Assembly (NCBI GenBank): GCA_001804315.1 | Contig: MHFT01000024.1 | Coordinates: 13,610 to 77,609, forward strand | Direction of reading: 5' to 3' | DNA: 64,000 nt | From: Omnitrophica bacterium RIFCSPLOWO2_12_FULL_50_11 | Lineage (GTDB): Bacteria; Omnitrophota; Omnitrophia; Omnitrophales; Danuiimicrobiaceae | Shown: positions 10,994 to 35,700 of the stretch, piece by piece | Layout of the letters: every line of letters begins with the position of its first letter | How positions within the stretch are numbered: position 1 is the first letter of the stretch | The notes under the pieces: model-generated | The model's input: the letters and a program-made list of their open reading frames with translations, nothing else | What the model was told of the DNA's origin: nothing | Database searches by the model: none | Program-made: the position numbers and the translations under genes

Positions 10994-11825
10994 TTTGCAT
11001 CAATTCAGCCGGCGCCGAACAAACAAAATCGGCACCTGCTTTCTTTAACCTCCGCTTCATTTCACATGGCGAAGCCGATGCGGCCAAAAATCCGCAGGAA
11101 AAGATTTTGACTTTTTTCTTTGCCCCTCTTGTTGCAAGCATGTCATCAGGCAAGTCTCCTACGTACAGGTAACGCAGACTTCTGCCGAGCCGCGCGGCAA
11201 TTTTTAAAAGCCCGTAGGGATTTGGTTTCTTTTTCGTTTTCGGTGTGTCATCTTGTGTGGTGAGCGCATCGATGAGCGAATCGATCCGAAATCTGCGGAG
11301 CGCAAAGTGCGCCTCTTCGCCGTTGCGCCCTGTCAAAACTCCTACTTTCAGGCCTTCGCGCTTCAGCCTCTTTAAGGATGAAATCGGGATCAGCATCTTT
11401 TCGTTCCATACGAAATCGCCGAGATAAAATCTTTGAAACATGTCCGCAATTTTTTCCATCGATACGACCGTATGCTTCCCTGACTTTTTTTCGATTCCTG
11501 CCACACCGAGCGGCCCTGACCGCGCGATTCGCACAAGCTCAGGAATGTTTTTCTGCTTCCGAAGTTCATTCAGCCTGCGGCGCTTGGGTTTCAAAGAAAG
11601 GAAGTAAAGCAAGAAGCCGTAGCAAGTGTCCCAGTCGTCGTTAAAGCCGCCGAGCGATTTGAATTGTTCAACATCTTGGCGCGTCAGGAGTGGAGTACGA
11701 GAGGGCTGGAAACCCAGTACCGCCGCGAGATAAGTTTCTACCGTTTTCCGAATGCAGTCGGTGTACGAGGCGCGCGTGTCGACAAGAACGTTATCGATAT
11801 CAAAAATGACCGCATCAAAGTTCAT
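10965..11825 (-). CDS. HAD-superfamily hydrolase
   Basis: Motif I DAVIFDIDNVLVDT; C-terminal KKKPNPYGLL and YVGDLPDDM motifs. Confidence 0.75.
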   Translation of the reverse strand: MNFDAVIFDIDNVLVDTRASYTDCIRKTVETYLAAVLGFQPSRTPLLTRQDVEQFKSLGGFNDDWDTCYGFLLYFLSLKPKRRRLNELRKQKNIPELVRIARSGPLGVAGIEKKSGKHTVVSMEKIADMFQRFYLGDFVWNEKMLIPISSLKRLKREGLKVGVLTGRNGEEAHFALRRFRIDSLIDALTTQDDTPKTKKKPNPYGLLKIAARLGRSLRYLYVGDLPDDMLATRGAKKKVKIFSCGFLAASASPCEMKRRLKKAGADFVCSAPAELMQIILPKSHSA

Positions 11826-13722: not shown

Positions 13723-13907
13723 TTTTGATTTTGGCGGTTTGAACAGCTTATATGACGCATCATTTCAAAAGTGGTGGGGGAGTAGTGTAATAGAAAAGAA
13801 ATGCATTGTCATTACAGGGTTGGCGCGAAGCGAACCCACGGCAACTCCTTCAAGACGTTCCTTCACTAGTTCAGCAAAGCCTCTGAAATTACGCAAGTCT
13901 TGGAGTT

Positions 13908-14321
13908 TTAAACCAAACGAACATGCGGAATGACATTTTTAGCCACTCGATGCAATCGGCGGTCCGAAGTCACAAAAATTTCAGAGCCCGAGAGAATCCC
14001 AGAAGCGAGCTGGACGGCATCCAAGGTTTTCAAGGCGTGTTGGCGGATGAGCTGAACGGCCTCATGTTCGAGATTTTCATTCCATACGGTCAGGAGAAAA
14101 TAGGCAAAATCCTTTTTAACCTCCACGCGAAGCCACTCAGCCTTTTCACGTGTCAACGTGTCCTCTCGCACGCACCGTTCAATGGTGGCATTCATTTCAA
14201 GCCACGTCACGGGAGAAACTACAATTTCCGCCGTTTTGGAGAGAAGCTTTTCAAAAGCCTCGCTTCCCGGTTCATCCGCATACTTTTTGAAAAGGGACGA
14301 TGTGTCAACAAATAGTCTCAC
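13908..14321 (-). CDS. vapC: PIN-domain toxin (VapC-like)
   Basis: MRLFVDTSSL..., acidic PIN residues and DAVQLASG...FVTSDRRL; 137 aa; 4-nt overlap with the upstream antitoxin gene. Confidence 0.75.
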   Translation of the reverse strand: MRLFVDTSSLFKKYADEPGSEAFEKLLSKTAEIVVSPVTWLEMNATIERCVREDTLTREKAEWLRVEVKKDFAYFLLTVWNENLEHEAVQLIRQHALKTLDAVQLASGILSGSEIFVTSDRRLHRVAKNVIPHVRLV

Positions 14322-14563
14322 CGTTCTTCGTTCCGCATCTGAGACACCGTTTGAGACAGCCCGGCACCTCTGACTTTAATCTTGGAAATTGGCCGCTTCC
14401 AGCCTGGGTGGGCTAGGTTCTCATTATGGGGAATCAAATCTGCAACTGGCGTACGCCGTTCCAGGATCACGATCCTCTCGCCCCGTTTGACCGCCTTAAT
14501 ATAACTGGAAAAACCGCGGGTCAACTGTCTAATCGTCACTTGAGTCATGTTCAAATCCTCCAA
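14318..14563 (-). CDS. Phd/YefM-family antitoxin paired with the PIN toxin
   Basis: MTQVTIRQLTRGFSSYIKAVKRGERIVILERRTPVADLIP is a typical Phd/YefM N-terminus, with tight translational coupling to vapC. Confidence 0.65.
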   Translation of the reverse strand: MEDLNMTQVTIRQLTRGFSSYIKAVKRGERIVILERRTPVADLIPHNENLAHPGWKRPISKIKVRGAGLSQTVSQMRNEER

Positions 14564-14729: not shown

Positions 14730-14758
14730 TTGAAAATGAACTTTTTTTAATGTATAAT
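14730..14758 (+). promoter_or_regulatory. Near-consensus sigma-70 promoter TTGAAA-17-TATAAT driving the giant ORF
   Basis: TTGAAA at 14730-14735, a 17-nt spacer, TATAAT at 14753-14758, and GGGAGG at 14784-14789 eight nt before the GTG start at 14798. Confidence 0.5.
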
Positions 14759-14797: not shown

Positions 14798-17700
14798 GTG
14801 GAAGCCAGCTTAAAAGGCCAGGTTTTACCACATAACGCTCGGTGCTTTAGAAAGTCATTTTGGAGAGCGACGGCTTGCGTCGTCTTATTTTCTTTCGCGA
14901 CTACAACTGTCGCTTGGTCCGATCCTGGCTTTGGTTCACTCGACCCCTCTTCCTCTTATTCATCTTTTGCACAACACTCCCTCATTAACCCATTGAGAAA
15001 TATTGATCTCCCAGAGCGTCTTGGGAAGATCGACGAACTGTTCCTCCCAGAGAGAGTCTCTCCCGATTCTCCGTTCGTCGTCTACCTCCAAGACGCTCAC
15101 TCTAACCTCGGGGCTCAGCGCCGCATTGCGGAGGTGGCGCGCGAGCTGAGCGACAAGCTCCAAATCGAGGCCATCCTTGTTGAAGGCGGCACAGGCGAAG
15201 CCGATCTTGCGGATCTAAGATCGTTTCCGGATCAAGAAGTTAAAGAGCGCGCAACCGAATTTTGGCTCAAAGAGGCGATGCTCAGTGGAATTGAACGGGA
15301 AGCGATTGTCGGTCCAAAAGTCTACCGCTTCTTTGGCGTGGAGGACGAAGCACTTTACGAAGCAGGGGGGCGTAATTTTATTGAGGCACAAACCCGCTCG
15401 CAGCCCTTTTTGACTTCGCTCAAACCGCTGGTTCAAGAAAACGGCGAAAATAGGAGGCAATACCTTAACAAGAAGCTCTACGAGTTCGAAGAACGGGTCT
15501 CTCAGTTTGAGGAAAAGAACGAACTGATTGCCCTTGTCAGTTTTCTTGCGAGTAAAGCGCGTAACCTTCACATCAACCGCTGGAAATATCTCGAAATCGA
15601 AAAGTTAATCGACCTCATTCTGCTTGAAATGGAGGGGGGAAATAGTGAGCGCTTTTTCGAAATTCAAGAAATGCTCGATTCAAGAAAACTTTTCCGCGAG
15701 TTGGATTCCTTGAAGTCGGAAGTTAAGGAACGGTTGTTTCAAACGGACGCCGAGCGCGCCATTGACGAAGAGCACCAAGCGCTAAAAGCGTTGCAAGCGA
15801 TCGTATCACTTAAAGCAACCCCCGACGATTTTGATTATTTCCGCAAGCGCCGCGAATTGATCAAGAAGTATGCGCAGAGGGCAAAATTAGATTCCGAAGC
15901 GCTTGCGTCTGCCGAGGCCTTTTACCGATCTGCGCAGGAACGCGATCGGAAAATATTCGAAAATATCCAGGCGATTCTCGGCGAAAACGGAATCAAACGC
16001 GCGATTTTAGTGACCGGTGGCTTCCACGCTCCCGGAATCACAACCGAATTCCGTAAGCACAAAATTCCATACGTTCTGATCTCGCCCAAATTTTCTGACG
16101 AGGACAATTACTCGAACTATCTCGCACGCGTTTCCGGCAAACGTGCGAGTCTCGACGAATTCAAATCGAAGCATTCTAACCGTCATCTGGAAGGAAGCCT
16201 TAACGGAGTCGTCATCCTGAGGCAACGATCCAAAGAGGTGCCGAAGGATCCCGGTCGGGATTCGTCTTCCAAGGAGCCTGCCCTGAGGACGGGATCCTTC
16301 GGGCCTTCGGCCCTCAGGATGACGTCCGAAAGAGGGCTTCCCAATGACGGCGCATCTCATTCCCACGCCGCGGCGCACGCTGTTTTCAACCGCGCCGAAC
16401 TCCGCGTCATTCGTGAGTCATTTGAGTGGTTAAGAGAGGGTGTAAGTTCGGCCGAGAGTGCCACTTCTCCTCAGACAGGTTTACGACGCGCCGAAACGCG
16501 AACAGAAAAACCAAAACTTCGATTTACTTTGCGAAGTTTAATCTTTTGGGTGATTTGCTATGCCTTAATGTTAGCGTTTATCAAAGCGGTTTTTGGCGAG
16601 GTAGAGTGGGGAGAAGCGCTAGGAGTAATGTTAGGTGTAGGTGTATTGGCTAGGCTTTTTCACTTAGAGTATGTGGATCTATTCGACCTGACTGAAGGGG
16701 CTGGCATTGAAAAGTCAATTGACCGCAGATTCGGATTGAAAAGGGAATCACGCGATCTCGATCCGAAAAAGGACGGAGCGGAAAGCGGTCGTGACCCAGA
16801 GGAACCACCGTCCGAAAACGCGGATCCGGACCGCCGCGCAGAGATGCGTAGAGAAATTCAGGTGGAGGCTACAACGGCGGAAGATGGACGGAAAAGCGGC
16901 GACATCGCAGGCGCGGTCGATTCTCTTCCACCTTCCACCCTCCAGCTTCCAGTTTCTTATCGCCAAGCGGAAGTGCGGGCAGAAAGGAACGCCGAAGACG
17001 GAAACAAGGAGCGGAATCAGATTCCGATTTTGGATTCGAGACAGGCCACTCGTTTGGAAAGACCGGGAAGAGCGACGCGAACGGCACTTTCAACTCCCGA
17101 TAGACGGTTTTCGACAAAGAAGAGGCGATCTTCTACCGCAGAGAGACGTTCTTCTACTGCTGAGAAACGGTTGGGAAGGGGCCCAACGCCCTCCACAACA
17201 GCACGAAACTGGCCTCGAAGATCTTCGATCAATGTCCCTACTTCTGTGACGGTATATGAATCAGCCCTTTTTTTTGGCTTGGTAGGATTACCTTTGCTCA
17301 TTTCAAATCTCCTTGAGGATCATTTTGTGGGAACGGAAGGAATGGAAAGCACTGTATCAAGGCTGCCACAAGATGTCAAGGCGCCTTTTCAAAAATCGCA
17401 CCGCGCTGAAATCCGAAGTCGATCCGGCAGGGAGGACGGTTCGGAAATCAAAGCGACAAGCTCAGAGGAAGGACAAAACATCCGATCCGTCCGTTCGGAT
17501 AAAATGCAATGGCTTACAGTTAGCATTTTGCTTCCAGCCGTCACATTGGGCTTAGGGATCGGGGCAACTTTTCTGACCAAACGTTTCGAATCGCTTCCCG
17601 TTTCGATTTTATTCGTGAGGGGGATGCAATATATTTTGGGCACATTCGCAGACATAGGAATGAGTGCTGCTGCGAATTATGTTGGTCAGTGGCGTAAATT

Positions 17701-20700
17701 TAGGAGTAAGGCCAGCTGGGCGAGGGCAGTCCGTTTTGGCTTAATTATCCAAGTCGGTTTCTCGATCTGGTTTTTCGTCAAGCCGCGGCTTAGGATTCGA
17801 CTGGACCACTACGGGTCTGTCATGATGGTTGCTGCCGATACGGTGATTAGTTTGTTTACCCATCGTTTGTTGCTTCATTTGCTATATAGATCCGAGAGGT
17901 TATCTAAAGACGAGATTCGCGAAAAGATGAAAAACACATTTTGGCCTTCTTATGGGATGTTGGCGGGCGTGTGGGGCATTTTCAATTTAGGCATTTATGC
18001 TATTCCAAAAGATTGGGCCTTCGTTATTCCTATTATTTCATCGGTCGTGGCTTTTGTGAACAAAGTTATTTTGTCAGCTTATCTATATCGATCATCTTCC
18101 CGGACACTGATGATGAAGTTTGGGGGGACTTTCGGCTTGGTAGCTCCGATCATAAGCTTTGTTGCGATGGGTTCAGTCATCGGGCTTGACTTTTCATTTC
18201 GGCACGTGATTTTTGGGGGATTGAGTGGATGGTTAGTCGGAAGTGCGTTCGTTTACTTTGCAAAAAAATACTGGGGCTCAATCCAAACTGAAGGTGACGC
18301 GCTTCAAACGGGACCGGCATCTACAGGCAATGTCAATGATTTCCGGCCTGAGGTGCGGGGCAATGAGAAATTGAGTCGCACGCGGTGGGTCCGGCCATCT
18401 TGGATTGATTCGACCAGCTTGTTTTCACCGGCGGAAAGAAAACTCATTCGGGAACGCGGTCAATTGCTCAAGTTCGTGTACCCGCGCTTGAGCGAGAATG
18501 CGAAAAAAGTATTACTTTACCCTTCCTTCTTGCCCGTCTTTATGGGCGTCAAGCCGGCGTACCTGCGTATTACAGACCTTATTACTGGCCGCAAAGAACC
18601 GGATCCTATGATCCTTGCGAGAGAATTGAAAGATATTCCCAAGGCTTGGGATCAACTTGGGATAACGTTCAACGACATCAGAGCGATGTTAGTATTCGAT
18701 GTTTTTGATCAACTCAAGGCGCACATGAAACTTTTAAAAGACTTTGGTGTCCTGCCGCGCTATCCAAACGTCGACCTGATGAGCGAAGAGTGGAAAAGCT
18801 ATCAACCGAGCAAGTGGCAGGCGTTATCGGAAGAATTGGAATTGTTCATTGACGACTTAGACGACAATGTTGAGGTTAGTCAGAGTGCTGGGCATGTTCT
18901 TAACGGCATTGTCTTAGGTTATCCGGTGGCGGAAGTTCAGGCTCTAGGCGAATACATAACGGGCTTTTCGGTGAGTGTAACGCGGCTGTCGACAGAGTTT
19001 GAAGGCATTGAGCTCTTCGTTCGACTAGGAGAAAAGGGAGAAATTGCAGACGAAACGCATCGCTATCTCGCGCGGATGACCGATGCGCTTTATTATGCCT
19101 ATTCACTCCTACAGGAAAATGAGGACTTCGCGAGCATAGCTCAGGAACTCAACCTTCCCCCTAGAGTTCTTTCAGCCGAAGCTCCTGAGTCGATTGTCAG
19201 CCGTGGCGAACTTAGGCAAAGCGATTTTTTCAGGTCTGAGGTGCGGGGAAAAGAAAACGCTCAAGATTTACAATTGTATATTCGGCGTGCTCGCCATCCA
19301 GAGGTTCAAAGCGGAGAAACGAGTGATCAGGCGCCGGATTCTGCCGCCGTCAGCCTGTTGCCAATACCGCGAATTTCTTCTTTGAGCTCAGACCGCGTTT
19401 CTCCAAGTTCAGTCCGAGTATCACGGAGGTCCTTGGAGAGTTTTGACACGGCGTCTTCAAGGCGAGATGCTTTACCGTTGAGGACGTTGATTCGGAGTTC
19501 GATCGTATCTAGCCTTCGGCTGTTGCCGTGGACAGTTACCTCGAGCCGTTCCATCCTCGTATCGAGACCTGACTGGCCCTCAGCGAGGGTATCAAATTTC
19601 TTGTCCAATGCTTCCAGAAGTGTGCCCACTTCCGTGACTGAATATGAATCAGCCATTTTCTTTGGCTTGGTAGGATTACCTTTGCTCATTTCAAATCTCC
19701 TTGAGGATCAATTTGTGGGAACGGCAGGAATGGAAAGCAAGGTATCAGAGCGGCCACAAGATGTCAAGGTGCCTTTTGATGCCGGGCGCAAGACCGGAAT
19801 TGCGAACCCCAAAATCTTCTCCTCTCCCCTGTCGGGGGAGAGGATTTCCGCCAAAGGACGCGGCGGATCCGCCGCGCTGTATGGCGGAAAGGTGAGGGGG
19901 ACGAGTGAAAATAACTTGAACATCCACCCTCACCCAACCCTCTCCCTCCAATGGAGAGAGAGGGGAAAAGACTACAGCTACGGTCTTGTGACTTTTGATG
20001 CCGCCCGGCGTGCGGAGACCCGCGATCGAGTGCGGAATCCGGAGTTCAGGGTGCGGAGTGGACTTAAGTTCGGGAGTTCGCCCGTTCCGCACTCCGCACT
20101 CCGCATTTCCAACTCAAATCGGCGGGCCGAAGCGCGGGCAGAGAGCGATGGAGATCAACTTGTCAAACGATTCACAAGGTTAAGGGGGATGAATCTTTTG
20201 AGAGCTTTACCTGAATTAAACGGCGCGGTTCGACGGAAAGATTTGCCGGCTCGCACTTTGGAGAAGCTGAAAGAACAGCGCCGGATTAGGTATGTTCCTT
20301 ATGTACGCGGAGCGCTCAAAAGGCTCGCACGGAATTTAAGGAGCGAATTTCCAAAGGGGCGTGAGCTCATGAAAGCAGTTGCGGATGCATCAGGTGATCC
20401 TGAACTCTATGACCGTTCGGATGCCCTTCCGTTGCGAATTCTCCAGCAAATCGATCAACGAAAAGCGTGGGAGAGGGTGGCCTCTAACGACAACGTCGCA
20501 GAGCTTCTCCTCCGCGCGAAAGAAGCATTTGATCGGTATATGAGCACTGATGACGCATGGCTTTCAGAACATCTGCCTGAACTCAAGGATAAAAGGGCCG
20601 CCTACTTTTCGGCTGAATTTGCGGTTCCGCCGCTCCCGATATACACCGGCGGAATGGGGGTGCTGGCGGCTGATATCGTGGCGAGCGCGAGTGATCTGAG

Positions 20701-23700
20701 GATTCCGCTCACAGCGGTTGGACTTTTTTATCAGCTTGGCTACTTTCGGCAGCTCATCAGACCGTCTGGCGAGCAAGAGGAAGATAGAAGTTATGCCGGT
20801 ATCCGGAGAGATAAACGGACAGGACGGCCGCTTGATTTGCCGGTCGAAGATCCAAGAACAGGACATCCACTCATCCTGCAAATGAGAATGCCGACTGGAG
20901 GCCGTGTCGTCAAGGCAAAAGTCTGGAAGGCGCGGTTAGGAAAGGTCGATTTATTGCTTCTCGATACCAACTTGAAGGAGGAATGGGCAAACTGGAACAA
21001 CGCGTGGAATGAAGGTACAGACCTCTCTATCACAGAACAAGCTTATCGGGAACATTCGGGAACGCAGGAGCGCATGGAACAATATTTCGTGCTCGGCGTC
21101 GGCGGAATAAAGGCGCTAAAAGCATTAGGTCAAGAACCAGATGTCATCCATCTCAATGACGGCCATCCAGTATTTGCGGCCATTTCTGCTCTTGCCCAAG
21201 CGTTGGCGCGTGTGCCTCGCGCGATAGAAGATCCCAAGCTCCGGTTTGACGCAGCGCTTGAAGTAGTTCGAGCAAAGACGATCTTTACGACCCACACGCC
21301 GGTTCCTGCCGGAAATGAAGCGGTGCCGGAACATGTGATCCGCCCCTTCTTGGAGATACTTTTTCCTGGGGGAAAAGAAGTCGATCAATATGCGGTGGAT
21401 CGAATCCTCGAAATGGGACGGGCAGACGGCAACTTTAACATCACCAAATTTTCATTGCTGGTTTCAGGATTTCACAATGCCGTGAGCAAACTTCACGGCG
21501 AGGTAGCACGCAAGATGTGGCAAGGTCTTTACCCTGCTGTCCCGACAGAAGATGTTCCCATCAAAGCGATTGTCAATTCAGTTCACACGGGCGACGGCGA
21601 GCGGGAAGGAAAGTGGCAAGCTCCCCAAATTGCGGAACTGCTTCAAGAAACCTACCAGACTGCTGAAGTCCAGCGAGTAATGCACCTCGAACGAGACGAG
21701 ATGATGCGGTATCTTACGGATAACAAATGGCTGGACCAAAACGTTCCTGTTTCAACGCGAGAAAAGTTGTGGGCCGTCCATGTCGGTGTTACGAAGCTGC
21801 TCTTTAATGAGGCCGAGAAGCGGTTTACAAGGCAGGCCGCGCGGGGCGACGCGTCGCGGGAAGATTTGGCTTATCTGAAAAGTCTTGACCCACAGGCGCT
21901 CACGCTTGGTTATGCGAGGCGGTTTGCTGGGTATAAAAGGCCTGATCTCATTTTTCTAGATTTGGAGCGCTTAAGATCTATCGCCGCGAAGTCACAAGGG
22001 CTAGTACAAATCATATTTGCAGGAAAAGCTCATCCCAGAGATGACGTGGGCAAACGGTTAGTTGCTCGTGTAAATCAAATAGCGCGTGAGTTACGCAAGG
22101 AAAAGAAAATCAAAGTCATTTTCATCGAGGACTATGACGTAGCGCTGGCTCGATTGCTCGTTGCCGGAGTGCACGTTTGGCTTAACAATCCGATCCTGAA
22201 ACAAGAGGCGTCTGGAACAAGCGGACAGAAAGCACTTCTAAATGGGGTGCTGAATCTCACGATCCCCGATGGGTGGGCAGAGGGCATTGTAGACGGCGTC
22301 AACAGTTGGAAGTTTGGCGGAACGGACGTCGGGGACATCGATGCCAAGGATGCAGCTGCGCTTTACGACAAGTTGGAGAAGGAAGTGATTCCCACTTTTG
22401 ATAACAATCGGGAGGAATGGATCCGCATGATGATCCGGGGCATTCTTTCTATCGCGCATCATCACGGAGGCGAGCGGCTGCTTTTAGACTACGGCCGGGA
22501 ACTGTATGTGCCTGCTGTCAATTCAAGCGCGATGATCACGTCAGGCAACAATATTCTGACAAAGTTGCTTGCATACCGCGCGAAATCTAGCGTGGAAGAA
22601 GGAATGCTTTTTTATCTCCGGCTTCCACCCGAAGCCGAGGCAGAAAGGGTGTATTGGGCAAATAGAATTACGAACTGGGACTCTCAAGAAGATTTCGCGC
22701 TTGAGAAAATATCAGACGGCGTGTGGGCCATCGTGATTCCCGCAGAGAAAGTAGCTGGCGGTGATGTGGACTTTAAATTTATGGTATTTCCGGATCGAAA
22801 AGTCCACGGCGCGAGTAGGCCCATTTGGCTGCGGGGCGGATATCCTAACAGTTTGCGCAGCGGCATTTATCAGAATGGAAGCGTCAAAGTTGACATGGAC
22901 CACCCTTTGTTTCGTCGGGACGCAGCTCGAAAGCTGCTTGCTGCCATTCGCTCCGAAGCGCGGGATGATTGGACTGAGAGACTCGAAAACGTCATGAAGG
23001 AAATGTCCTACGTGCCGAAGTGGTTGAATGATCCAAAGTATTCGACACGTCCCGCTGTATCTCCCAAAGAGATCATTCTTCAGAGCGAAAAATTCGCCCG
23101 TTTCGCCGAAAGCCTCGCACCGGTTTTGACGCAAAAGCGTAGAGAAAAGTACGTCATGCGGCACGGGGTGAATGCATTGTCGCCTCTGAGATCTTTTGAT
23201 TTTCCTCCTCCCCTCCGGGAAGATTCCTACGGCGGCGCCGAAATCATCCTCAAAGAGGGATTTGACTGGAGCCGATTGACAGCCGGCGGGGTCATGGCCA
23301 ACATCGGGCCGTGGGAAGGCACCAAGATAACGGAAGCTGCCATCCTGGAATTTGATTTTGAAGGGGATGTCTTCACGAGCCTCGGCGCCGGCACTGACGT
23401 TAAGGATCAGCTGAGAAAATTTTTCGACACGAGCCTAGACGAAATCCATCTGCCCGAAGAACCACCTTTCTATCGGGGGCGGGGCGATCTTTTTAATTAT
23501 CTCCTCATCCTTTTATTACGTTTGTACGGAATCGACGGCGTGAATTTCGCTTATCCGGCCAAGGAATCCAACGAACCCAGATCTTTCGAATTTCTCGTGA
23601 CCCACCCCAAAGCCATCAGCCACATCCGGCTTGTTACCAGAAAACCCGGGCCAACGATTTCCAAGGAAAGAGAATCCGGCCCCCCCTCCGAAGTGCGTAC

Positions 23701-26700
23701 GGAGATTGTGCCGGAAGAGCTTGTCAAGGTTCGCTCACAGCTTGAGTATGAGCGAAGTGGCACTGGAGAAGTGTTGAATGTAAAGCCGGGAGGAATTCCT
23801 TCAGAATCGCGGAAACGAGGCCGGGAGTTTGCTTTTGACCTACGGCTGAATGCGGAGTCTCAAAACAGGAAAGCGGTCCAAAGAATCGCAGGCTTTCAGA
23901 AGAGGTTAGAAAAAATTGTCACTGCCGCCGAGCTTTTTATTCTTCCGAAAGATGCCTTCCACATTGCGTTAGGTGGCTTCTATCCTGGCGAAAGCTGGGA
24001 TTTGGATTCAAATGGGCCGATAGATTTACCAGAGGATGCGGTTGAGAACGCCCTAACCCTCTTCCAGCAAAAGCTCAATACCGCCTTCAAAGATTCGCCT
24101 GAACTCATCATTGCCATCATCGGCGCAAGGATGACAAATAATGGAACCGTGGTTCTTGATTTGAAAGAACATCATGGTGGAAAACTTGCCGGACTCCGTG
24201 GGCTGGCCTATTCCGCAATGGAGGAAGCGAACTGGCCGCCAGGAAAGTTTCGAATCAACCGCTCGAAGGATGGACAGGTAAGCGACAGCGGAATTGTGAC
24301 CTTGGCCCGGGTCATTCCTCACCCCGACAAAGATGAACCCTTGTCAAGCTCAGAGACGCTAATGCGAGTAGAAGGCAAAATTACCAAAATGGATCGTGAG
24401 CTGAAAAACAGTCCAATCACTCTCCGGTTCACTCAAGAAGATCAAGAAATAGCTCGGCTTGGAACGCGTGTTTTAATCGAAGAGATTGAGGGTTGGGCAT
24501 CCACAAATGATTTTTTGAAAGAGCGTGCGGATGAAATCGTCAAGCTTACTGCGAATGGTTTTGCCCACGAGACCTACGAAGCGGTCCGCCAAATAGAAGC
24601 AATGGATTGGGGAAGAAGAAAAGGGATTTATTCTCCTCAACAAGTTCAAAAAGATCTTCAAGGCGAACCTCCAGGAAGTCTATTGATGCTAAAGAGGCAA
24701 AGGCACAATCAAATACTTGCCACGCACGGAGAAAGGGTTGCACTTCTTGAGCTCGAATTGCGTCATTTGAGCGTCTTGACACTTTCACTCGCGTTAAAAG
24801 GAATCCCCATGGATGTGGCAAGGAGCAGCCATTATTACTATCTTTTACTTGAGATTGAGCGGTTCAAAAATTCCAACGGTATCGAGGGCCTTAACCCTGA
24901 GTTCATTTCTCCGGCGCAACAGATACTTGTCTTGAACGAGATAGCGAAATCTCAACTTCGTGGTGCACGGGAGCAACTTGGCAGACAAATCGCAGAGCAC
25001 TTAGACACCATTAGTTTTCGCTCGTCTGCCGAACGACTGTTACCCGAAATAGAAAAAATCATCGCGAGCTGGGAGGAACGTTATGTGAGAACAAAGCTTG
25101 AGCATGCTGTGTTGCAGGTAATTGGTCCCCTGAGACTAACTCGGGCGGCAGGAAAAAAGGTAAAAGATGAGATATCCCGTAGAAAAGTCGAGATCGTCGC
25201 ACACGTGGTGCGACAACTCACCCCAGACGTATTAAGTGGCCGTCGCATAACGACAAATAAGATTCGCGACGCCCTTAGAAGTAGCGGTCTCAGTTTTGAC
25301 CGTGTGAACCGGCTCAATCGTCCGGTGCGGTCCGGTATCACGAAGAAAGTCGACGAAATAGTGTTCAACATTGAAGAAAGCACGCACCGCTTGAAATTTC
25401 GTTCTGCGTTCCAAAACCCCCGCTCGGAAGCAAGGTGGCTCATAATGGCTGCGAAGATCGTTCTTATGGTCGCGGTTTTCGGTGCTCTGGGCTATTGGGC
25501 GCTCCGCGACACCAAAGATGATTGGGCCAAGGAGTTTAGTCAAATGACGGAACTTATTAAGGAGACCACCTCGACAGATGTTTTAATTGACATCGTGCGA
25601 GATACTCAAAATAACAGCATCCACCGCTGGTATGCGGTAAGACGATTAGTCGAAGCAGCCACAGTTAATGAATCTCTGAGAAAGGAAGTGGTGCCGGTGC
25701 TCATGGAAGAAATTACCCGCTATCTCAAAAAGGAGCTGGATCCACAGACGATGGTTGCGTCATGGGGGGTCGAGGTTGAGGCGATAGACGGTCTTGCCAA
25801 GTTCAAGGCGACGCGAGCAATCAACTTATTGAGACAAGTTTACACGGACGGCTCGGTCGATCAAACGGTGCGTGAAGCGGCGAGGGGAGCGGTAGAACAA
25901 TTGGAAGAGACACGATCCGGCCGCTCCAGAGTACAAGAAGGTCAATTGGACAGAGAAGAAAAATTGAAAACGTCTGGCCCGAGGAGCTCAAGATCCGAAA
26001 TTCGTAGTGAAATCGTCACTCCAAAGACGAAACTTGAAGAGAGGGGTACCCTTATTTTCCGCCGTATTCGGTATGAAATAGAGCAGATCATCCACGTGGC
26101 TGGAGATGATTTCATCCTGTTAAGAGCGAAAAAGAAGTACGCAGGGCAAAAGAGACAAAGGAGGGTTGACCGTCCCATTCATATTTCCAGAAGTAAGAGC
26201 GAGGTTACGAGCGGCCCTCTTTTACGAGTTTCCCTCAATGATGGAAACTGGAGTTACATTTCACCCAAGCGTGCTGAGGTGCGATCGCCGCAACAGAAGA
26301 AAAAAATAAAATACCCTGCCATTCATATACCCCTTGGAACGTATTTAAGGGTTTATTCTGGAATTTTTCTTCCGGCGATCTTTTTCATACTTAATGTATT
26401 AACCGTCGTAAAACTCGGGGCCCAGCTGGCAGGGGCGAAGATTTTGAATGGCCTCCCATTGGACGCTGTGATCACCGCATACGGGATTATTTTAGTCCCA
26501 GCCATCATCCATTTCGCAATGGAAAAATCTGTTTGGCTTCGGAAACGACAGCGTGCGCGAGAAGATCGGAGAAAAGCCGCTGGTATGCGCGGTGAGTCAC
26601 GCTCCCAGTCTGTTGAAGGCCGTGAACGTGCGAATGGAGATATTGGAGAACCAAAACAATCTGCAGTTCGAGACTCGGCGGACCGTGCGGAACTGCGAGC

Positions 26701-29700
26701 AGAATGGAAAGGTAAGAGTATTTTCGAAATTGGATTCGAAGCCAGTCTAATTCCTCGGGAGTTTAATTTGTTAGTGGATGCCGCGGTTAAGGGATTTAGC
26801 AATCTCAACGAGGCCGAACGAAATCAAGTGAAAAAGGTTCTTCGGAAGATTTTCGAAAAATTGGGCTTGCTCGAAACGGAAAAGCAAGAGGAGCGGCGCC
26901 GATTCCTGAGTCAAATCAGCGCGCTCATGATAAAGCTCAAAGCGCGGGGAAAGTTAGACAAATTAAAGTCAACGTTTCAAAAGAAATACTTGGACGAGAC
27001 ATCGTTCAAATTGGAGCGTGAGGTCAAAGTGTCAGGGCTTCAAACCGGTGATCAGGTACAGGAAGCAGCGGCGGAAATATCCGATGAAGAGCCTCTGGGC
27101 GCTTTGAGAAAATTGCTTGCTAAAAAACCCCGTGGGATTGAGGAAGCATATGCCTTGTCTATTTCACGAGGCGCATCTTTAGAAGAGGTTCGGAGGACAC
27201 TCAAAGAAGCTGGCTATGAGATGACGCAATGGAGACGCGACGGGTTGCTCGGCCTCTTTCGATTTAAACGAAATGTGTGGTTGAAAGTGCAAGAGCCCCG
27301 CCGGGCCGAGGTGCGGCACGAGCTGGTGCAGAGTGTGGAATTCGGAGTGCGAAGCAGACGCGAACGAGACGACTCGATCATTCCGTATTCCGCACTCTCC
27401 ATTCCGCACTCGGAAACACGGGCTGAGATGCGGGGACAATTGGAAGAAGATTGGAAAATAGCACGTTCTGCTGTGTGGTTTTTTTTGAGGAGAGGGGTTT
27501 ATTTTAAGCAGGACATCGAAGATGCTTTTCAGGATATCCATCTTGCGTTTGCGGAGGAGAGGCAGAAGGGAAAACCCTTATCAGAACTGGAGCTGAGAAA
27601 GATTGCTCTGGCCGCCCTTTCAAAACATGTGAGGGATTATCATAAGTACAAGCGTGTGGTTAGAGGGTTTCAAGCTGCATATAGATCGCTCGTCACAAAG
27701 CGCCGCGGCCCACGTCCTATGCTTGATGATGTCGATCTCTTGATACCTGAGGTAGGGGAAGAGACATTTGGGGACAGGCTTAGATCTCATTTCAGAAGGC
27801 GAGGGTGGTCCCAGCGACGAGGAGCGCGTGAATTAGGATTTTCGTACGGCTCCATTAAACCGTGGATATCAGGTAAGATTCCAAGCCCATTCTTTGTGAA
27901 ACGGCTTGCGACCGCACTGGACACGACGGTAAGTGAGTTGATGATAGGAATACCTAGGGAAGAGTTGCTCGCCATCAGGATTGAAGATGAAGAAAGTGGC
28001 GAATACAGAAAAATCTTGGGGTTGAAGGTCAAAGTTTTGAGATATGAAAAAGGATGGACAAAAAGCAGGCTTGCTCGCGAGGTGGGTATCAAGGATAACA
28101 CCATTATCAGACTGGAGGCAGGCGAACCTACGTTTCCCTATCGGTACATTGGAAAACTTGCCGAAACGCTGGGTACGACGATAGGCGATCTTATTGCAGG
28201 AATGCCTGACGAAAAAATAATGGCTATTCGTGTTTTTGACGAGAAAAGCGAGGAGCATCGTGAACTCTTTGGGCTCAAATTAAGAGTCCTCAGATATAGG
28301 CGAAGATTATCTCAGACCGGTTTCCAGGGCCAGAGTAGCACCTCCGCATGGGAAAGTGGGAAATGGTTCCCCTATCCCAGAAGCATGAAAATCATTGCGC
28401 GCAACTTAAAAACAACTGTGAGCGAACTTTTAGCCGGCATACCTGAAGAGAAGTTAATGAGCATGCGGGTCCGAGACGAGAAAAGCCGGGAAGCAAAACA
28501 AATTCTTGGATTAAAGATCAAAATTTTTAGATACAAACGGGGTTGGACCTTAACCGAACTTGCTCAAGAAATGCACGTGCATGTTGATACGGCTTCAGAT
28601 TGGGAAGCCGGACTGCACTTCCCTGCGATACGGCATTTCAAACAGCTAGCAGAACGACTGAATTCTACGGTGAGCCATCTTCTGGTGGGTTTGCCCGCAG
28701 AGGAGATAAAAACAAGATTAAAAAATGGCAATGACCCGGACTATGCCGACCTATTCAATCTCATGATCCGGGTTGTAAGATACGAGAACGGTTGGTCATC
28801 GGGCAAGCTCGGCGCTGAAGTTGGGATTCCTCGGGTAACCATCGATGGATGGTCATGGAGTCGAGCAGTTCCCGCCCCTAACAATTGGAAAAAATTGACT
28901 ACTGGAAAAGGGCACGTTCTTTTCGGTGACTACCTTCCTCCGTCACGGCCGAAACCCACAGAGCTTGATGAGACAGAACGTAAAGTTCATGAACTGTATC
29001 AACAACTAGGTCGATACAGTTCTGTCGCCAGAGCAATGGGATGGCAAGGAGCAGCAGGCGGCGTGAGGGCCCGGCACATATACCTGCGGTCTCTTCGGAA
29101 ATTGGGGGCTCAGAGCCGCGCTGAGGTGCGGAACGAACTGGTGCGGAATGCGGAATTCGGAGTGCGGAGTGGACGTCAACTCGAAGACTTGATCATTCCG
29201 CATTCCGCCCTCCCCATTCTGTACTCGGAACCACGGCCTGAACTGCGGATGGGGCTGGAAGAGATCGCGATCTATGAGGAAGACGTGGATCTCGAAGCGT
29301 ATCAGCGCGTGATGCGTTCTGCCGAGGTCCGTTTCTTAACGCGTGAGGAGGAAAAGATCCTTTTTCGTGCCCTTCATGCTCGAAATCTAAAAGGAGAAGA
29401 GCGCAGGACTCTCTTTGACTTTCTAGTCTTGAAATATCTTCCTAGGATTAAACGCGTGATCCGTAAACTCGTACGCGGTGAGGGGCGAGACAAGGACAAT
29501 ATGTATCAGGACGGTTCTTTGGGGTTAATGGAAGCAGTCTGTCGTTTTGATTACCGTCTCGGGACGAGGTTTGGTACATTTGCCGACTGGTGGATATGGG
29601 GCAAAATTCTAATCGGTTTGAATGACTTAGCCACTGGAAAGTTACCGTCTCAGGAGCGGGAACTCGTCCCCGCAATCTTGAGCTCTCAACAGGAATTAAC

Positions 29701-32700
29701 ACAGCTTTTCAAGCGTGAACCCACCATGGAGGAATTGGCCAAAGCGCTAGGGGAAGAGGAAAAAACGGTGATCCGCATCCTTTCCTTCTTCTCACGGGCA
29801 AAGTCCTTAGATGCCCCAGCAGGGAACGGTGAATTAAACCGCTATCAATTCCGCTCGGATCCAAAAGCGGAAACTCCGGAGGCGATCGCGGTTCGTGAGG
29901 AAGAACACCGCGAGATAGTCCCAGAGATTTCAAGAAGGCTAGCCCTTCTTTCCTCTTACCAGCAGCTCGTCATCAAACTGCGGTTTGGAATTGGCACGCA
30001 AAAAGAGGGCGGTTATACACTCGACGAGATTGGAACAATGCTGGGGGTCACAAGAGAGAACATCCGTCAGATCGAAGATCGTGCAATCAAAAATATGCGC
30101 AGCAACACTATTTCAGACGCCAAGACTCGTCCCGTATCCACTGAACATGGTGATGTTTACCTTGTGGAAGTCGTCGGCATAAAGCCGGATCATCCTGTTT
30201 TTGAGGACATGCGGCTCAAGCCACTTATCGAGATAAAAGAGCTTTACGAAAGGGGCTTTTTTGCCAATTTCATTCCGGCACAAAACTTGACGATGGGCAG
30301 GGTCAGAAATGTTAAGCCTCGTGTCGGCTACCGGAGACGCGTAGCGGCAACGGCCCGAGCAGCCGCTCACCGTGCTGAGGCGCGCAGTGGAAGCGTGAGG
30401 GAGTATGCGACGTGGGATCACTTCCATAGCTTGATTCATGTCCTCGCGATAGATAGCGAGGAAAAGAATCGGCTGGAAGCGTATAAGCGATTGAGAGAGC
30501 TAGCATTGTTTCAACCGTTCCACTTTGGCCTTGCTTTGGTGCGGCATGTCGGAGGTGAAATAGCTTCTTATGCTAAATCCATTTTGCTGGAGGTTGCGTG
30601 GGAAAACCCAGAGATCATGACTGGACCCATTGTGAGCTCACTTGAAGATCCGAGTCGGAATCCGCATGCTGAAGAACTTCTCGGCCAGTGGATTGACCTC
30701 ATCATCAAAAAGAAAGATCGAAACAAACTCAGTATTGTTGCCCGGCCTCTGATCGGCATCTTAGCTCTTGAGATAGCCCGCCCTGCTGCCGAAAGATTGA
30801 TTCAAAAAATTGCTCTTTTTGATCTCGGTGTAATTGTGAATCGATTCATGGGGGCACTCAAAGATCCCGCGAGGCGGGCGATCGTCGGGCACCTCCTTGT
30901 AGTCATTAGCCGTTATTCTGCTGGCGCAGCAAAGTTCGTCACCGAAACTGTCATTGAAAATCTTTATGACAATGAAATCGCCGAATACCTTATAGAAGTA
31001 CTTCTTGAGATTTCCAAGGATGCGGGCGAAAAGACGGTAAAACATATTTTGTGGTTATTAATGGATGTTTTGCATTTTGAGGATTACCTGAAGCGGGTTC
31101 GTTTTGTTCCGTTCAAGGAACGGCTAAGAGAAAATAAGGGAGATTTCCGTCGAAACGCAGCCGCGGTTTTATCGAGAATGCTGGTGACATATCCGGTCGA
31201 AACAGTGCACATTGTAGTCGGCCATGCTTTGAATCATGACGTCCGGCAGTACGCCGACGAAATCCTCGCTGAAATCGAGGATAAACAACCCCAGATTCTT
31301 ACTGATTCCTATGTGGCAGCTCAGGGCCGAATGAGTCCAAATGAATTTGTGGAAAGCGAGTTGATTCGTCTCGCTGCATCACATCGAGGGCCTATCCTCA
31401 ACTCGCTCATCAAATCGCTTAAGAGACAATCAAAAGCTCCGGCCTTAGTTTCGCTTCTGATAAAGATGGCGCGGTCTAACTCTGAGCTTTCAGGTTTCAT
31501 TCAAGAGCGCCTCAAGTCTGCGATGTCTGAGGTGCCGACGCATCGGAACCTCGATCGCTTCGGTCAACAAATTCTTGCCCAAATCCAGTCCCGCAATGAA
31601 GTGCGATTGGGATTAAATTTGGCCAAGGAGAGAAAAGTACTGCTCTCGGGAAATGCCAGCCGTGCGGAGGTTATTCAAAATGATGAAAACGGGCACAGCC
31701 CGATATTGAGGAATGACGATCGGACGGCTGACGCCAGGCTTGATGTAAACAAGGTGGTCGCCAGTTTGACGCACACGCCGAAAACCGGCCAATTCGAAGA
31801 CTCGACAAAGGTTTTGATACGGAATCGGAGTGATGCGGCTCATGGAGCAGGAGACGATTTAGAAAGTGACTTCGCTATGCTCGGTAGCAATAAGAGGAGG
31901 AGAAGTCCATTCGGTTCCAGCCGGATCTCGGGCAATGAAACCTTCTTCTTGAAGAATGTCCTTGAGCGTTCCCATTCTGGAACTTTCCTCAAGGAACAGC
32001 CGAACCGCTTCCATAAGCCTGCGCCGCGCATCGTCCACCGTATCTCCGCAGCTGGCAACGGACAATTCTGGGCAGACACTGACAAACGTCGGCCCCTCTC
32101 TAAAAATCAAGGAAGTGAATTCAATCTTTCTCATGGCATTCAAACTATAACACAGAACCGGGATGCCGTAAAGCAGCCCTCTTACCGCTCTGCAGTGCGT
32201 GAAAAATTCAGGGGAGAGGCGAGAGAGGAGAGGGAAGAGAAAAAGCGCTTACCTCTTACCGCTTCTCTCTCGCCTCTCACCACTCACCTCTCCCCTGATT
32301 CTTCCCGCCCCGCGGCACGCAAACGAGTGCGAAGCGGACATGAACTCGAAGACTCGATCATTCCGCATTCCAGACTTCCCAATCCGCACTCGGAAACACC
32401 GGCTGACGCGCGGGATCTCGTAGTTGCGCATGACGAATTGCCAGTGACGAAAGGTAGAAGACCTTGGCAGTACGAACGCGCGGATCTAAGGCACCGAGCG
32501 CGCTCTAGAGGTGTGAGTGCTTTTCGCGGCGGCGGCCCTGCCAATCGAGAAAGACAATTCCGAGAATTATTACAAGCAGGATCACAGCAAGAAACACAAC
32601 ATTCGCTGTTGCTCCATCCATTTTTGTTTCCTCTCGTCAGGATTGATCCAGAGAATGAAGGCAAAAGCAACAAGATAAATTATAACCCCGGCCACCAGAA

Positions 32701-35700
32701 GAAACAAGACAGGTCCGACTTGTTGGGCGCATCCGACTTCATACAGTTGTCATCGCGAGGCCAGCATCCCAAGAATGGGCTGAAGCAATACGATGCCTCC
32801 GTCATTACGAGGAAGCGTAGGGGCAATGACGAAGTAATCTCGGATGCGAGATTACTTCGTCATCCCTTGGGGTTGCTTCCTCGCAATGACGGTCAGGATG
32901 CAATTGCTTCGTCAACGCCTGGTCCGCTGCCTCGCGATAACGTTGGCATTGCTGCATCGAGCGGGATACGCGCCGCGGTGCAGAGTGGACAGGAACTGGA
33001 AGACTTGATCATTCCGCATTCCGCACTCCCCATTCCGCACTTGGAAACACGGCCTGAGGTGCGGAGCGGGGACAAATCACGAGGGGATGCGAGCGCTCCT
33101 CCTGACCGTGTCAAACAATGGGAAGAGAATATCGGTGCCGTGAAAAGGATGTTGAGCAAGTTTTTTCAGGAAGGCAATGACCTAAATTATGCCTTGCTTT
33201 TGTTTGGAAACATCCTCGTGAACGATCCCGTTAGAATCGATTACATGGAGAAATTGATGAATGCTTTGAAGAAACAAAAGGGGCCTCGTAGAGACAAAAA
33301 CGCAAGACACGGCGTAGAGCTTACGCCTGACGATCTTAGAGATTTGCTCGATTGGGTAATCGGAGACGTCGCCTATTTAAGCTCTCCGCCTAATAGGAAG
33401 GACGACGGACCTGTTATGTGGATGTGGGTTCCATACAGAGACCTACCCGAAGAACTCATAACCGAAATTGTGAAATATCGAACGCCTAAAAAGAATTTTG
33501 ATGATGCGGCTGACGCATGGAGAGCATATCAGGCGCAGGGTGATAAGAAGCTAATCGGATTTAAGTCATTCTATGATAAGCACTTTAAAAAAAGAGGGGC
33601 GATGGCGTCTGGCGATCAGGCTTTTGATTCGTATTCGTTTCATTTTTTACCTACGAGAAAGCATGATGATTTGAAACTAGGGATTGACACTGACTGGGCC
33701 GGCAGAGGATTGGGCAGAGGATTGGTTGCGTTCAGGGACGTACCTCGAGGTCGAAAACTTGTTGTAAATCGGCTCCGGCAATCTGAACAGGTTTATGGAA
33801 TGTCTCAACATTTGTTTTACATTGAATTAGAGCACGTCAAAAATCGGCTTATTGTTCACACCCACCAACACGGCGGTAGTCGGACGAGTCAATTGAGGAC
33901 TTCCGATCGTGAGTTGTATGATTACTTGAAACATGTACCGGATAAAGCCTTCGCTTTGTTAATAGACCGACTGGATGAGGTACTTGCAGCTTTAGGATGG
34001 TCGGCAGCCGATCAAATCCAGGATTTTGAGATTGTCTCAGCCAGCAAGGTCGCTTATGAATGGTCCACGGTCTCGGCCTCAACGGTTATGACAGCTTATA
34101 TGGATTTTCCACAGCGCCTTGGATTTCATATGGTAGAACGTAAGCCCAATGAGATCCGGAATGCGCCAGGCGACCAAGCCATGTGGAGAGAAAGCGTGTG
34201 GTACTGGAGCCGGCCGCTTGCGGATATGAAGAAACCTCCGAAAGTTCAGATCGAGACGCCGTCTTCTTTCCGTCCGGAAGTGAGAATCCTGGAGACGCGG
34301 GCTGAGGTGCGGGAAACAAAAGTAAGAAGCACGAAGCTGGAAGCAGGAGCGCAAAAGTCTCTCGCTTCAGGCCTCGCGTTTCACGCCGGCGGCAAAGCCG
34401 CCTCCCGCTCTGAAATGCGGATAAATCCGAGGAGCACTGAGGAATTGCGCGAACAGTTGATGACTCTTGTAAGGGAGATCGTCATTCTGCTTGATCTTCT
34501 CACGGTAGATCCCCGTCGGGAGAACCGGAAGGAACTTGAAACCGAGATTACGGAGCTGAGAAGGCAGCTCAGTGAACAAAAAGAGTTTGTGAACGAAGAT
34601 CAACATCAAATCTTTGACAAGCTTGTGGGAGAAGTTAAATCGCTCATTGATTTAGTATCGGCTTCCAAGCTGCCTCTTTCTACTCAATTGATACGAGAAC
34701 ATACTCAGCGTATTTACAGTAACATCCAAGAGCTGGAATTTAAGCCTACGGGGGAACAAAAAGATGCAATAAGTGCGGAAACAGAACGCTTCGAGCTCGC
34801 GAAGTTGATTAGAGCTAAGGATGTCGAGGGTATTGCTGACATGCTTTCGAGAAGCGACGAGGTGCCAATAAAGGTAGATGCGATCAGGGCACTGGGTCTA
34901 TTGAAGGCCAGTCAATATGCAGATTTGATCGTTCCATACTTAACCTTTTTCACACCACCCTTCGGCGAGGGTGTGCGGCTGACTGCAATTACTGCATTAA
35001 GAAATTTAAATGCAAAACAATATCTAACTGAGATTGCGAAGAAATTCACAGATCCCACACTAAGCGTTCGCAGTAGGGCAGCCGGAGTGATTGGGGCATT
35101 CGGGGATCCAACATACATCCCCCAACTGAAGGAACTATTGAATGACAAATCCGCCGCGGTGCGGCTTGCAGCGGCAAAAGCTTTGCAGAAATTCGGAGTG
35201 GACATTCCTGAAGAATACCGCTCCGAAGCGCGGAGCAATGATGATGTCTTTATGAGGATCGCAGCTTCTTTGCCAGAGGAGTGGCGGGAAAAAATTCAAG
35301 CAGTGCAGACAAAACCAGCTAACAGGGATGTTTTCCCCTCGTGGATACAAGCGCTGAATGAAGCGGAAGCGACGCGCCTACACTCCATTCTAACGGATCG
35401 CGTGCCAGTAGATGTAATTGAGTCCTTTTTCCTGAACAGCCCGCACTTTCTTGCAAGCGATCCCGATCAGCGTCATCAAGTGGCAGTTTCGATTGCAGAG
35501 ACGCTAGAGGATGTACGTCGGCTTTTAAGATCTTGGATTGAAGAGCTGGATCGCGACCCGCATGCGCGACGTCCTGCAGCGATCCCTGCGCGCCAGATGA
35601 CCACCCCTGCTGAGACAAGAGGTGTCCGGCCGCAAGAAGAACGAGAAGAGTGGGTATCAGAGGAGGAAGCTGCCAGACGCGCGCGCTTCATTGAGTGGGC

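Follow-up and report, generated by a model that had tools for sequence, protein, structure and literature searches.

Contig MHFT01000024.1 of Omnitrophica bacterium RIFCSPLOWO2_12_FULL_50_11 (GenBank assembly GCA_001804315.1) carries a giant open reading frame (ORF) in which complete proteins are joined in series after a conserved head domain, here named M1, and that also holds palindromic repeats and antisense genes. We analyzed this ORF within a stretch of 64,000 nucleotides of the contig (positions 13,610 to 77,609, forward strand), hereafter the window, to whose numbering coordinates refer unless another locus is named; other loci are cited by number (L046 and the like). In our reading, the ORF is probably a polyprotein-type operon, the spacers of which hold selfish DNA. 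Its main parts are as follows:

14730..14758, + strand: sigma-70-like promoter (TTGAAA-17-TATAAT) with 11 of 12 consensus matches, just 5' of the giant ORF
14798..37675, + strand: giant stop-free ORF of 7,625 codons (22,878 nt) with about 19 concatenated modules
14798..16207, + strand: M1, the conserved N-terminal head domain (470 residues), with a predicted N-terminal helix at residues 12-41
20138..22948, + strand: complete alpha-glucan phosphorylase module of the long form, assigned by Pfam and homology

A Pfam scan of the giant ORF identifies DUF3417 and Phosphorylase, four HTH_3 domains, two sigma-70 factors and HEAT repeats. The phosphorylase module aligns end to end with stand-alone phosphorylases of many phyla; a genome scan with this module returned solely stand-alone enzymes of other phyla at no more than 38% identity, which are useful for placing the module boundaries, and no Omnitrophota relative. 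A scan for promoter- and terminator-like sites revealed no excess of them inside the giant ORF, and none of the terminator-like sites lies at any repeat. A protein search with a 2,051-residue stretch of the giant ORF gave no matches and failed to recover its own sequence as well, so that this null result says little; we suspect that the protein database lacks giant proteins. Spacers could not be delimited with a frame-0 codon score, which was too noisy, and a six-frame comparison was used instead.

The giant ORF is not an assembly artefact, as two independent assemblies agree on it. Assembly L046 (ENA ERZ27254759) matches the window at 99.94% identity over 20.8 kb without a gap, and the gene called there has 7,625 aa; assembly L056 is identical to the window save for a run of 10 N within one of the hairpins (family D, below). 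Both reproduce the open ORF, and the frame disruption in a true assembly that the preliminary description of this DNA had named as fatal to its account did not appear. The apparent strain indel in L056 is a scaffold gap of 10 N and was dropped as a variant; contig breaks are frequent at repeats. All 12 differences between L046 and the window are single-nucleotide polymorphisms confined to 37267-37645, where the giant ORF approaches its 3' end, and 10 of the 12 fall inside 93 nt, a local hypervariable patch. In L058 (JGI 3300025311), which belongs to the same species, 53 nt are absent within M1 (window 15844-15900) between the direct repeats TTCCGCAAGCG and TTCCGAAGCG; this loss would frameshift the giant ORF and may reflect a genuine deletion allele or, alternatively, an error of assembly.

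Among named homologs of the first 470 residues, the closest belong to Candidatus Omnitrophica genomes, and a metagenome scan with an M1 alignment found relatives at 28-59% identity. In L060, L061, L062, L064, L065 and L069, the full set of relatives whose flanks are long enough, M1 begins an ORF that is free of stops over 3,776-3,879 codons; these lengths are lower bounds, because the fetched loci end there, and L061 duplicates L060, leaving five distinct relatives. Conservation between the window and these relatives is limited to M1, and the cargo behind it differs: a response regulator, a sigma-70 factor and a 2-hydroxyacid dehydrogenase in L060, CsrA and ROK in L064, and MutS in L065. As in a polyprotein, complete and unrelated proteins share one ORF, both in the window (phosphorylase, sigma factors and a helix-turn-helix (HTH) array) and in the cargo of the relatives.

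M1 has no Pfam family of its own; its conserved residues include His101, Glu129 and the histidine of GGFH (about residue 410). An exhaustive profile search yields 9,849 clusters of M1 at 50% identity; of the top 150 hits, 109 reach 1,000 aa or more, up to a maximum of 6,707 aa, and in those listed M1 occupies the N-terminus. One M1-headed protein joins a GH5 cellulase, a B12-binding radical SAM enzyme and a GT2 glycosyltransferase.

Two other arrangements of M1 were also observed. In L005 (positions 1-21494; JGI 3300035179, a 283-kb contig of a distant relative), a stand-alone gene of 497 aa encodes the M1 homolog and is flanked on one side by a 6,624-aa ORF (methyltransferases, SdhA-like flavoprotein, PrmA) and on the other by ORFs of 983 and 2,010 aa. 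This locus contains a different junction-like motif, x-D-G-G-x, which recurs 12 times in one frame and recalls double-glycine leader cleavage sites. In L010 (positions 3100-3420; JGI 3300045072), which shares 43% identity with the query, the gene call for M1 includes a stop, and the conserved tail HAAHSSVFILSELMTIRDSFWLARRSELR runs on in the +1 frame into the next gene, which is either a sequencing frameshift or a genuine change of frame at the first junction. A Y1_Tnp gene adjoins the M1 homolog in L010.

A pentapeptide at the module junctions

The modules of the giant ORF are separated by a recurrent pentapeptide, R-[A/S/P/G]-E-x-R, whose copies lie in the giant frame as follows:

16391..37066, + strand: 27 copies of the junction pentapeptide
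First codons of copies 1-14, + strand: 16391, 16487, 16835, 17402, 18344, 19202, 19232, 20009, 20123, 22949, 25421, 25991, 26270, 26588
First codons of copies 15-27, + strand: 26684, 27302, 27419, 29117, 29234, 30371, 32210, 33050, 34271, 34298, 34406, 35219, 37052

The composition of the frame predicts 0.7 copies, no more than 5 occurred in any of 2,000 shuffles, and all other frames of the window together contain 11. The alanine and arginine codons of the pentapeptide vary synonymously, which argues that it is conserved at the peptide level. We rejected an RNA-level motif, either Shine-Dalgarno-like (GAGGTG) or a small hairpin (CGCG-GAAA-CGCG), because these codons vary freely.

The relatives contain 9-13 copies each, with a fourth residue that is specific to the lineage: RAEVR in L060, RAELR in L062, RAETR in L064 (13 of 13 copies) and mostly RxESR in L069. 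The position of the motif coincides with native protein ends. The response regulator of L060 begins two residues past a pentapeptide, and the CsrA profile match of L064 begins immediately past one; at the other end, the long-form stand-alone phosphorylases terminate at positions corresponding to residues 2713-2717 of the giant ORF, and RSEAR starts at residue 2718. Judged from these alignments, the pentapeptide marks module boundaries and native protein ends. The giant ORF thereby has a short conserved boundary motif of the kind that polyproteins possess, in a pattern that cleavage sites of a polyprotein would produce, and cleavage at these sites appears probable to us.

Palindromic repeats and antisense genes in the spacers

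The preliminary description had reported four palindromic repeat families, A to D, as occurring both in intergenic DNA and inside the giant ORF. This holds for families A, B and D, of which we find the following copies:

16211-16323 (core; extended palindrome 16193-16341), + strand: family A copy of the giant ORF, in the C-terminal tail of M1; fold z-score -4.5
43025-43098, 47909-48015, 50780-50880, 62130-62208 and 62923-63008: intergenic copies of family A
8001-8067, + strand: A-like palindrome, the centre of which supplies the ATG and the first 12 codons of the exonuclease gene 8032-8679
32749-32941, + strand: family B copy of the giant ORF, a compound (nested) palindrome that encodes the peptide ...NDEVISDARLLRH...
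6549-6638, 61389-61568 and 62629-62771: intergenic copies of family B
19820-19900, + strand: family D copy of the giant ORF, a double hairpin; fold z-score -6.1; breaks the L056 scaffold
39145-39225: intergenic copy of family D

This census was made by pairing termini. The terminal motifs GTCATCCTGAGG, GTCATTGCGAGG and TGCGGAATGCGG are matched 9, 13 and 9 times against 0.25, 0.40 and 0.53 expected, far above chance as had been proposed, whereas TTTCCGCCAAA alone (8 matches against 3.3 expected) is not significant. Family D is supported by its 81-nt pair at 19820-19900 and 39145-39225. The elements measure 74-193 nt and fold with z-scores of -4 to -11.8 relative to shuffled sequence, with one exception in family C (copy C5, below). 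The inner unit of the family B copy in the giant ORF has a z-score of -11.8, and the copy is open in 1 of 6 frames; the intergenic compound at 61389-61568 is nearest to it (77% identity over 70 nt). As in miniature inverted-repeat transposable elements (MITEs), the 12-nt termini of families A and B (GTCATCCTGAGG or GTCATTGCGAGG) form perfect or nearly perfect terminal inverted repeats. The flanks of the copies share no target-site duplication; the palindrome just extends by C...G.

All copies in the giant ORF keep the frame and introduce no stop, in agreement with the earlier account. They are not inherently stop-free, however: among intergenic copies, 12 of 30 frames are open in family A and 5 of 18 in family B (5 of 6 for the family D copy). 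This indicates that stop-freeness is not a property of the repeats and reflects selection on the giant ORF. Other genes of the window had also been thought to read through copies. Among them, gene 8032 (8032-8679, a DEDD-type exonuclease) does so: the centre of the palindrome 8001-8067 contains its ATG and the right arm is also coding, and its orthologs in L063 and L065 start 5 residues before the LVLDLET motif, without the 20-residue extension seen in the window. ORF 6531 is ambiguous, as its ortholog aligns from residue 50 only, downstream of the repeat, and ORF 62641 is spurious, being built of repeats.

Alignment of the M1 tail reveals that family A lies in an insert of about 55 residues in the window, which is missing from L059, L060, L062, L064 and L069; L065 has a different palindromic insert at the same point. 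The comparison with relatives thus yields an empty site in five of them, and no strain variant at the repeats was found, the L056 gap being a run of N. The empty-site evidence is confined to family A, the cargo around families B, C and D being non-orthologous. Families A and B were not found in the relatives' loci, and the giant ORFs of four of the five relatives (L060, L062, L064 and L069) contain hardly any hairpins. Together, the empty site, the absence of families A and B and the scarcity of hairpins argue that the repeats are lineage-specific passengers rather than part of the system. Rfam gave no match anywhere in the window, and a literature search for the repeat termini returned unrelated primer sequences only. 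We regard the repeats as palindromic elements of an ordinary kind in this genome, either selfish or structural.

Palindromes of other kinds were seen in two further loci. The giant ORF of L065 contains in-frame palindromic elements of other families (GTCATTCCCGC type) at positions 11398-11499 and 14376-14473 of that locus, one of which encodes DSRLRGNDT directly before an RSEAR motif; these elements indicate that colonisation of spacers arose independently in another lineage. In L013, from a Dehalococcoidales genome of an unrelated phylum, termini of sequence GTCATYSYGAGG (positions 111-122 and 2378-2389 of that locus) flank a stand-alone phosphorylase gene, and palindromes with such a head may occur widely among phyla.

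Family C differs from the other three in that it has no copy elsewhere in the window, as had been noted for its five copies:

20049-20138 (with motifs, 20009..20137), + strand: copy C1, hairpin between RAETR and RAEAR; fold z-score -4.1
27345-27434 (with motifs, 27302..27433), + strand: copy C2, RAEVR, hairpin and RAEMR; fold z-score -4.0
29160-29249 (with motifs, 29117..29248), + strand: copy C3, RAEVR, hairpin and RPELR, directly followed by a sigma-factor module; fold z-score -6.9
32325-32414, + strand: copy C4, partial, its flanking motif decayed to TPADAR
32976-33065, + strand: copy C5, left arm lost, ending in RPEVR and apparently decayed; fold z-score -1.4

All five lie on one strand of the giant ORF at spacings that are multiples of 3, and hence in one frame, and each carries or adjoins a junction motif. 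The sequence CTGAGGTGCGG, previously taken for a flank of these hairpins, is the commonest codon spelling of the pentapeptide, most of whose 27 copies in the ORF lie away from family C. A protein search with an alignment of the family C peptides found no matches, a null that says little given that the giant ORF itself was not recovered there, and a metagenome scan with the same peptides found nothing. Family C has the appearance of a linker cassette, composed of hairpin plus motif, that underwent duplication inside the giant ORF, and mobility of this family is not supported.

A sliding minimum-free-energy scan detects 24 exceptionally structured segments in the window. Those outside the giant ORF are almost all intergenic, and the seven strongly structured segments inside it are all located at module junctions. 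Family A lies 23 residues before a pentapeptide; C1, C2 and C3 each lie between two pentapeptides, within 1-5 residues; and D, B, C4, C5 and a further hairpin, I2, occupy long low-complexity stretches between pentapeptides. All repeat copies of the giant ORF are thus found between modules, and none inside a module defined by Pfam or homology. Their location in spacers beside junction motifs makes it more likely that the encoded peptides are discarded than that they are functional. The segment 34265-34425, with a fold z-score of -1.8, was not counted as a repeat.

32203..32303, + strand: low-complexity purine/pyrimidine hairpin I2; fold z-score -6.5

The spacers also harbor genes on the opposite strand. 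The six-frame codon comparison singles out exactly three regions of the giant ORF in which the coding signal is stronger on the minus strand than in the giant frame, and the genes and associated features are as follows:

17017..17301, - strand: small coiled-coil gene 1 (94 aa), in a spacer; the minus frame is the best coding frame
19327..19689, - strand: small coiled-coil gene 2 (120 aa), in a spacer; 44% identical to gene 1
17223..17389 (copy 1) and 19611-19777 (copy 2): 167-nt direct repeat of 89% identity, spanning the promoter, 5' untranslated region and first 26 codons of the small gene
31613..31843, - strand: hicA toxin gene, in the longest spacer (Pfam HicA_toxin, E 3.3e-7, 30.7 bits against a cutoff of 27)
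31859..32143, - strand: candidate hicB-like antitoxin gene directly upstream of hicA, assigned by sequence and gene position
32172-32144, - strand: promoter-like site upstream of the hicA/hicB-like ORF

The two small genes (MSKGNPTKPKK...) have in common a TTGACA-17-TACAGT promoter (17379-17351 for gene 1), an AAGGAG ribosome-binding site and an ATG, and differ mostly by synonymous changes in the minus frame; in the giant frame, their DNA reads as serine/arginine-rich filler. No homologs of them were found in any fetched locus. The hicB candidate has a weak homology match only (PDB 2yzt, E 0.31), and the six-frame scan flags 31868-32047 within it. The module resembles type II hicAB in that a HicA domain above the Pfam cutoff has a small antitoxin-like ORF directly upstream on the same strand; it differs from hicAB in lying antisense inside another ORF, the frame of which is open across it, and in its weak HicB assignment. 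We conclude that the antisense genes are real.

The giant frame is open across all four antisense coding sequences. The codons of hicA and the hicB-like gene are exact reverse complements of giant-frame codons, which implies that TTA, CTA and TCA are avoided there to keep the giant frame open. When the antisense proteins were held fixed and their codons redrawn from window usage, 27%, 21%, 17% (hicA) and 7% of the synonymous recodings left the giant frame open, for a joint value of about 6e-4. Openness of the giant frame through the antisense genes is therefore improbable by chance, which provides strong indirect evidence that the frame is read. Comparable antisense segments were not found in the relatives.

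Polyprotein-type operon and alternative explanations

We favor with fair confidence a reading of the giant ORF as a polyprotein-type operon with selfish DNA in its spacers. M1 would come first, followed in one frame and from one promoter by some 19 self-contained modules (a complete alpha-glucan phosphorylase, two sigma factors, an XRE-type HTH array, HEAT proteins and membrane proteins), with a pentapeptide at each boundary. The spacers would be constrained solely by the need to avoid stops and frameshifts and would otherwise evolve like intergenic DNA, so that they collect whatever colonises such DNA; in this genome they would have gathered the hairpins of families A, B and D, the family C cassette, two antisense small genes and the antisense hicA cassette. 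Ribosomes would have to read through the spacers to reach the downstream modules, and selection would consequently remove insertions that shift the frame or add a stop. The spacer peptides, including those encoded by the repeats, would most likely be cut away at the flanking pentapeptides. The whole giant ORF is probably translated, and the polyprotein protease may be M1 itself.

Several points weigh against this reading. That the entire ORF is translated and that its product is cleaved at the pentapeptide are steps that we infer. Most long M1-headed proteins in a library at 50% identity carry neither R-x-E-x-R nor an obvious repeated 4-mer, which makes the pentapeptide a feature of a subclade. 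An insertion length that is a multiple of 3 can be deduced for family A only, and the single orientation and frame of all five family C copies suits cassette duplication or a function better than passive tolerance. As to M1 as the protease, its AlphaFold2 model (mean predicted local distance difference test score, 79) has a weak likeness to erythromycin esterase (Foldseek probability 0.89, E 0.02, template modelling score about 0.25), and its Pfam hits, which stay below the curated cutoffs, are Erythro_esteras and ChaN, both of the Tiki superfamily. The predicted N-terminal helix possibly places the domain outside the cytoplasm, where it would be unfit as a protease for cytoplasmic junctions.

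The behavior of family C lends itself to an alternative that we consider unlikely, in which the hairpins act as RNA elements at the junctions (pause sites for co-translational folding or cleavage, RNase processing sites or stabilisers of the mRNA) and the family C cassette also aids module shuffling. The uniform orientation and frame of the five copies, the placement of three of them within 1-5 residues between two pentapeptides, the strength of the hairpins and the lack of copies outside the giant ORF, in the window as in the family C peptide searches, all fit this explanation, and the different cargo of the relatives suits recombination at common linkers. By comparison, L060, L062, L064 and L069 share the motif-delimited architecture almost without hairpins, which argues against a general requirement for them. 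Furthermore, C4 and C5 have lost an arm, Rfam provides no match, and RNA cleavage within the ORF would give non-stop mRNAs.

A further alternative draws on Rickettsia palindromic elements (RPE), which are palindromic repeats of some 100-150 nt that create new segments inside working proteins and were reportedly described by Ogata and colleagues in 2000. Here the palindromes would insert into working proteins and their peptides would persist as new surface segments, which we regard as quite improbable. The likeness to RPE proposed in the preliminary description is real in part: the elements of the window are palindromes of about 75-190 nt with stable hairpins, present in intergenic DNA and also in frame without stops; copies are dispersed for families A, B and D and not for C; and the orthologs of the family A site, in five relatives, lack the insert. 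Family A moreover lies within the conserved C-terminal tail of M1, upstream of the first pentapeptide, and the exonuclease gene 8032 apparently takes its start codon and 12 codons from a palindrome. In contrast to RPE, however, all copies of the window lie in spacers between modules and not within a folded, working protein: B, C, D and I2 occupy long low-complexity stretches between motifs, beside antisense genes. The relatives with the same architecture are free of these repeats, and C4 and C5 are decaying. In addition, the elements are presumably unrelated to RPE in sequence and belong to another phylum, and the peptides that they encode are probably discarded. Rickettsia already offers in-frame palindromic repeats, and the repeat observation alone would be another example.

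That the giant ORF is a chimera of separate genes, made by assembly or annotation, with repeats that are simply intergenic, is very improbable: the intergenic look of the spacers (repeats, antisense genes with promoters, a toxin-antitoxin module), the tendency of contigs to break at repeats, the frameshifting 53-nt deletion of L058 and the frame change of L010 after M1 speak for it, but 7,625 codons are stop-free at 50% GC with some 19 modules in a single frame, two independent assemblies agree, five distinct relatives contain no stop over 3,776 codons or more, the junction motif is specific to the giant frame, and chance openness through the antisense genes is improbable.

With respect to known mobile repeats, repetitive extragenic palindromic (REP) sequences, with the bacterial interspersed mosaic elements (BIME) and REPIN and with the REP-associated tyrosine transposase (RAYT), and MITEs such as Correia and Nezha are mostly extragenic hairpin repeats. 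The repeats of the window resemble them in being mostly extragenic, in forming several related families with nested or compound copies, and in their perfect 12-nt terminal inverted repeats. They differ from REP in length (74-193 nt as compared with 20-40 nt) and in lacking a GTAG-type head. Neither a Y1 (RAYT) nor any other transposase is found among the gene calls covering the window.

Viral polyproteins, such as those cut by the picornavirus 3C and potyvirus NIa proteases, are processed at short conserved sites. The giant ORF is similar to them in joining several complete, unrelated proteins, with a motif that varies by lineage and lies exactly at native N- and C-termini. It differs in that it belongs to a cellular bacterium, has housekeeping and regulatory cargo, and contains spacers with selfish DNA and antisense genes; its cleavage and its protease are putative.

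Giant ORFs of Omnitrophota have been described by Seymour et al. 2023 (PMC10066038) and West-Roberts et al. 2023 (bioRxiv 10.1101/2023.11.21.568195), where cleavage was suspected and information on the cleavage points was lacking; a survey of huge proteins poses the same question of cleavage. The Omnitrophota giants described so far are transmembrane-rich and adhesin- or carbohydrate-binding-like, with C39/S8 peptidase and SecA-like domains. Our ORF is of the same phylum and of comparable size, above 20 kb (22,878 nt). Unlike these giants of the archaeovorin or dockerin type, it yields no C39/S8, SecA-like, dockerin or adhesion domains in the Pfam scan, and instead displays enzymes and regulators of cytoplasmic type behind a head without a Pfam family, together with a recurrent junction pentapeptide. 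A literature search found no paper that joins Omnitrophota with polyproteins.

The pentapeptide offers concrete candidate cleavage sites for giant proteins. If the polyprotein-type operon is confirmed, it would mean that a cellular organism expresses an operon through a single translation unit; spacer DNA would then evolve like intergenic sequence yet have to stay open, which would also constrain codon choice on the opposite strand. The repeats noticed at the outset would be one visible symptom of the colonisation of spacers in the gene that carries them. We advance more tentatively, at somewhat less than even confidence, that such ORFs could form a large undescribed class of bacterial polyprotein operons, with an M1 head and interchangeable complete cytoplasmic proteins; in one subclade, these would be released by cleavage at a lineage-specific R-A/S-E-x-R, possibly by M1 as a Tiki/erythromycin-esterase-like hydrolase, and the discarded spacers would be havens of selfish DNA, where hairpin repeats, toxin-antitoxin modules and antisense genes with transcription of their own persist under a frame constraint only.

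Other features of the window

Another hairpin family (TCCCCCACCACTTTAAGG ... CCTTAAAGTGGTGGGGGA) is positioned right at gene ends, at 8676-8737, 13709-13784 and 46632-46687, and the giant ORF has no copy of it. At about 13908-14548 on the - strand, in the interval from ilvD to the giant ORF, the gene calls of L056 include a 76-aa ORF and a PIN-domain gene, which look like a VapBC-type toxin-antitoxin pair. A long hairpin of AGAGAAC/AGAGTAC heptamers at 9132-9294 overlaps the called start of the aminotransferase ORF 9178-10554; this ORF is 57 residues longer than its 401-aa counterpart in L009, so that its true start probably lies downstream.

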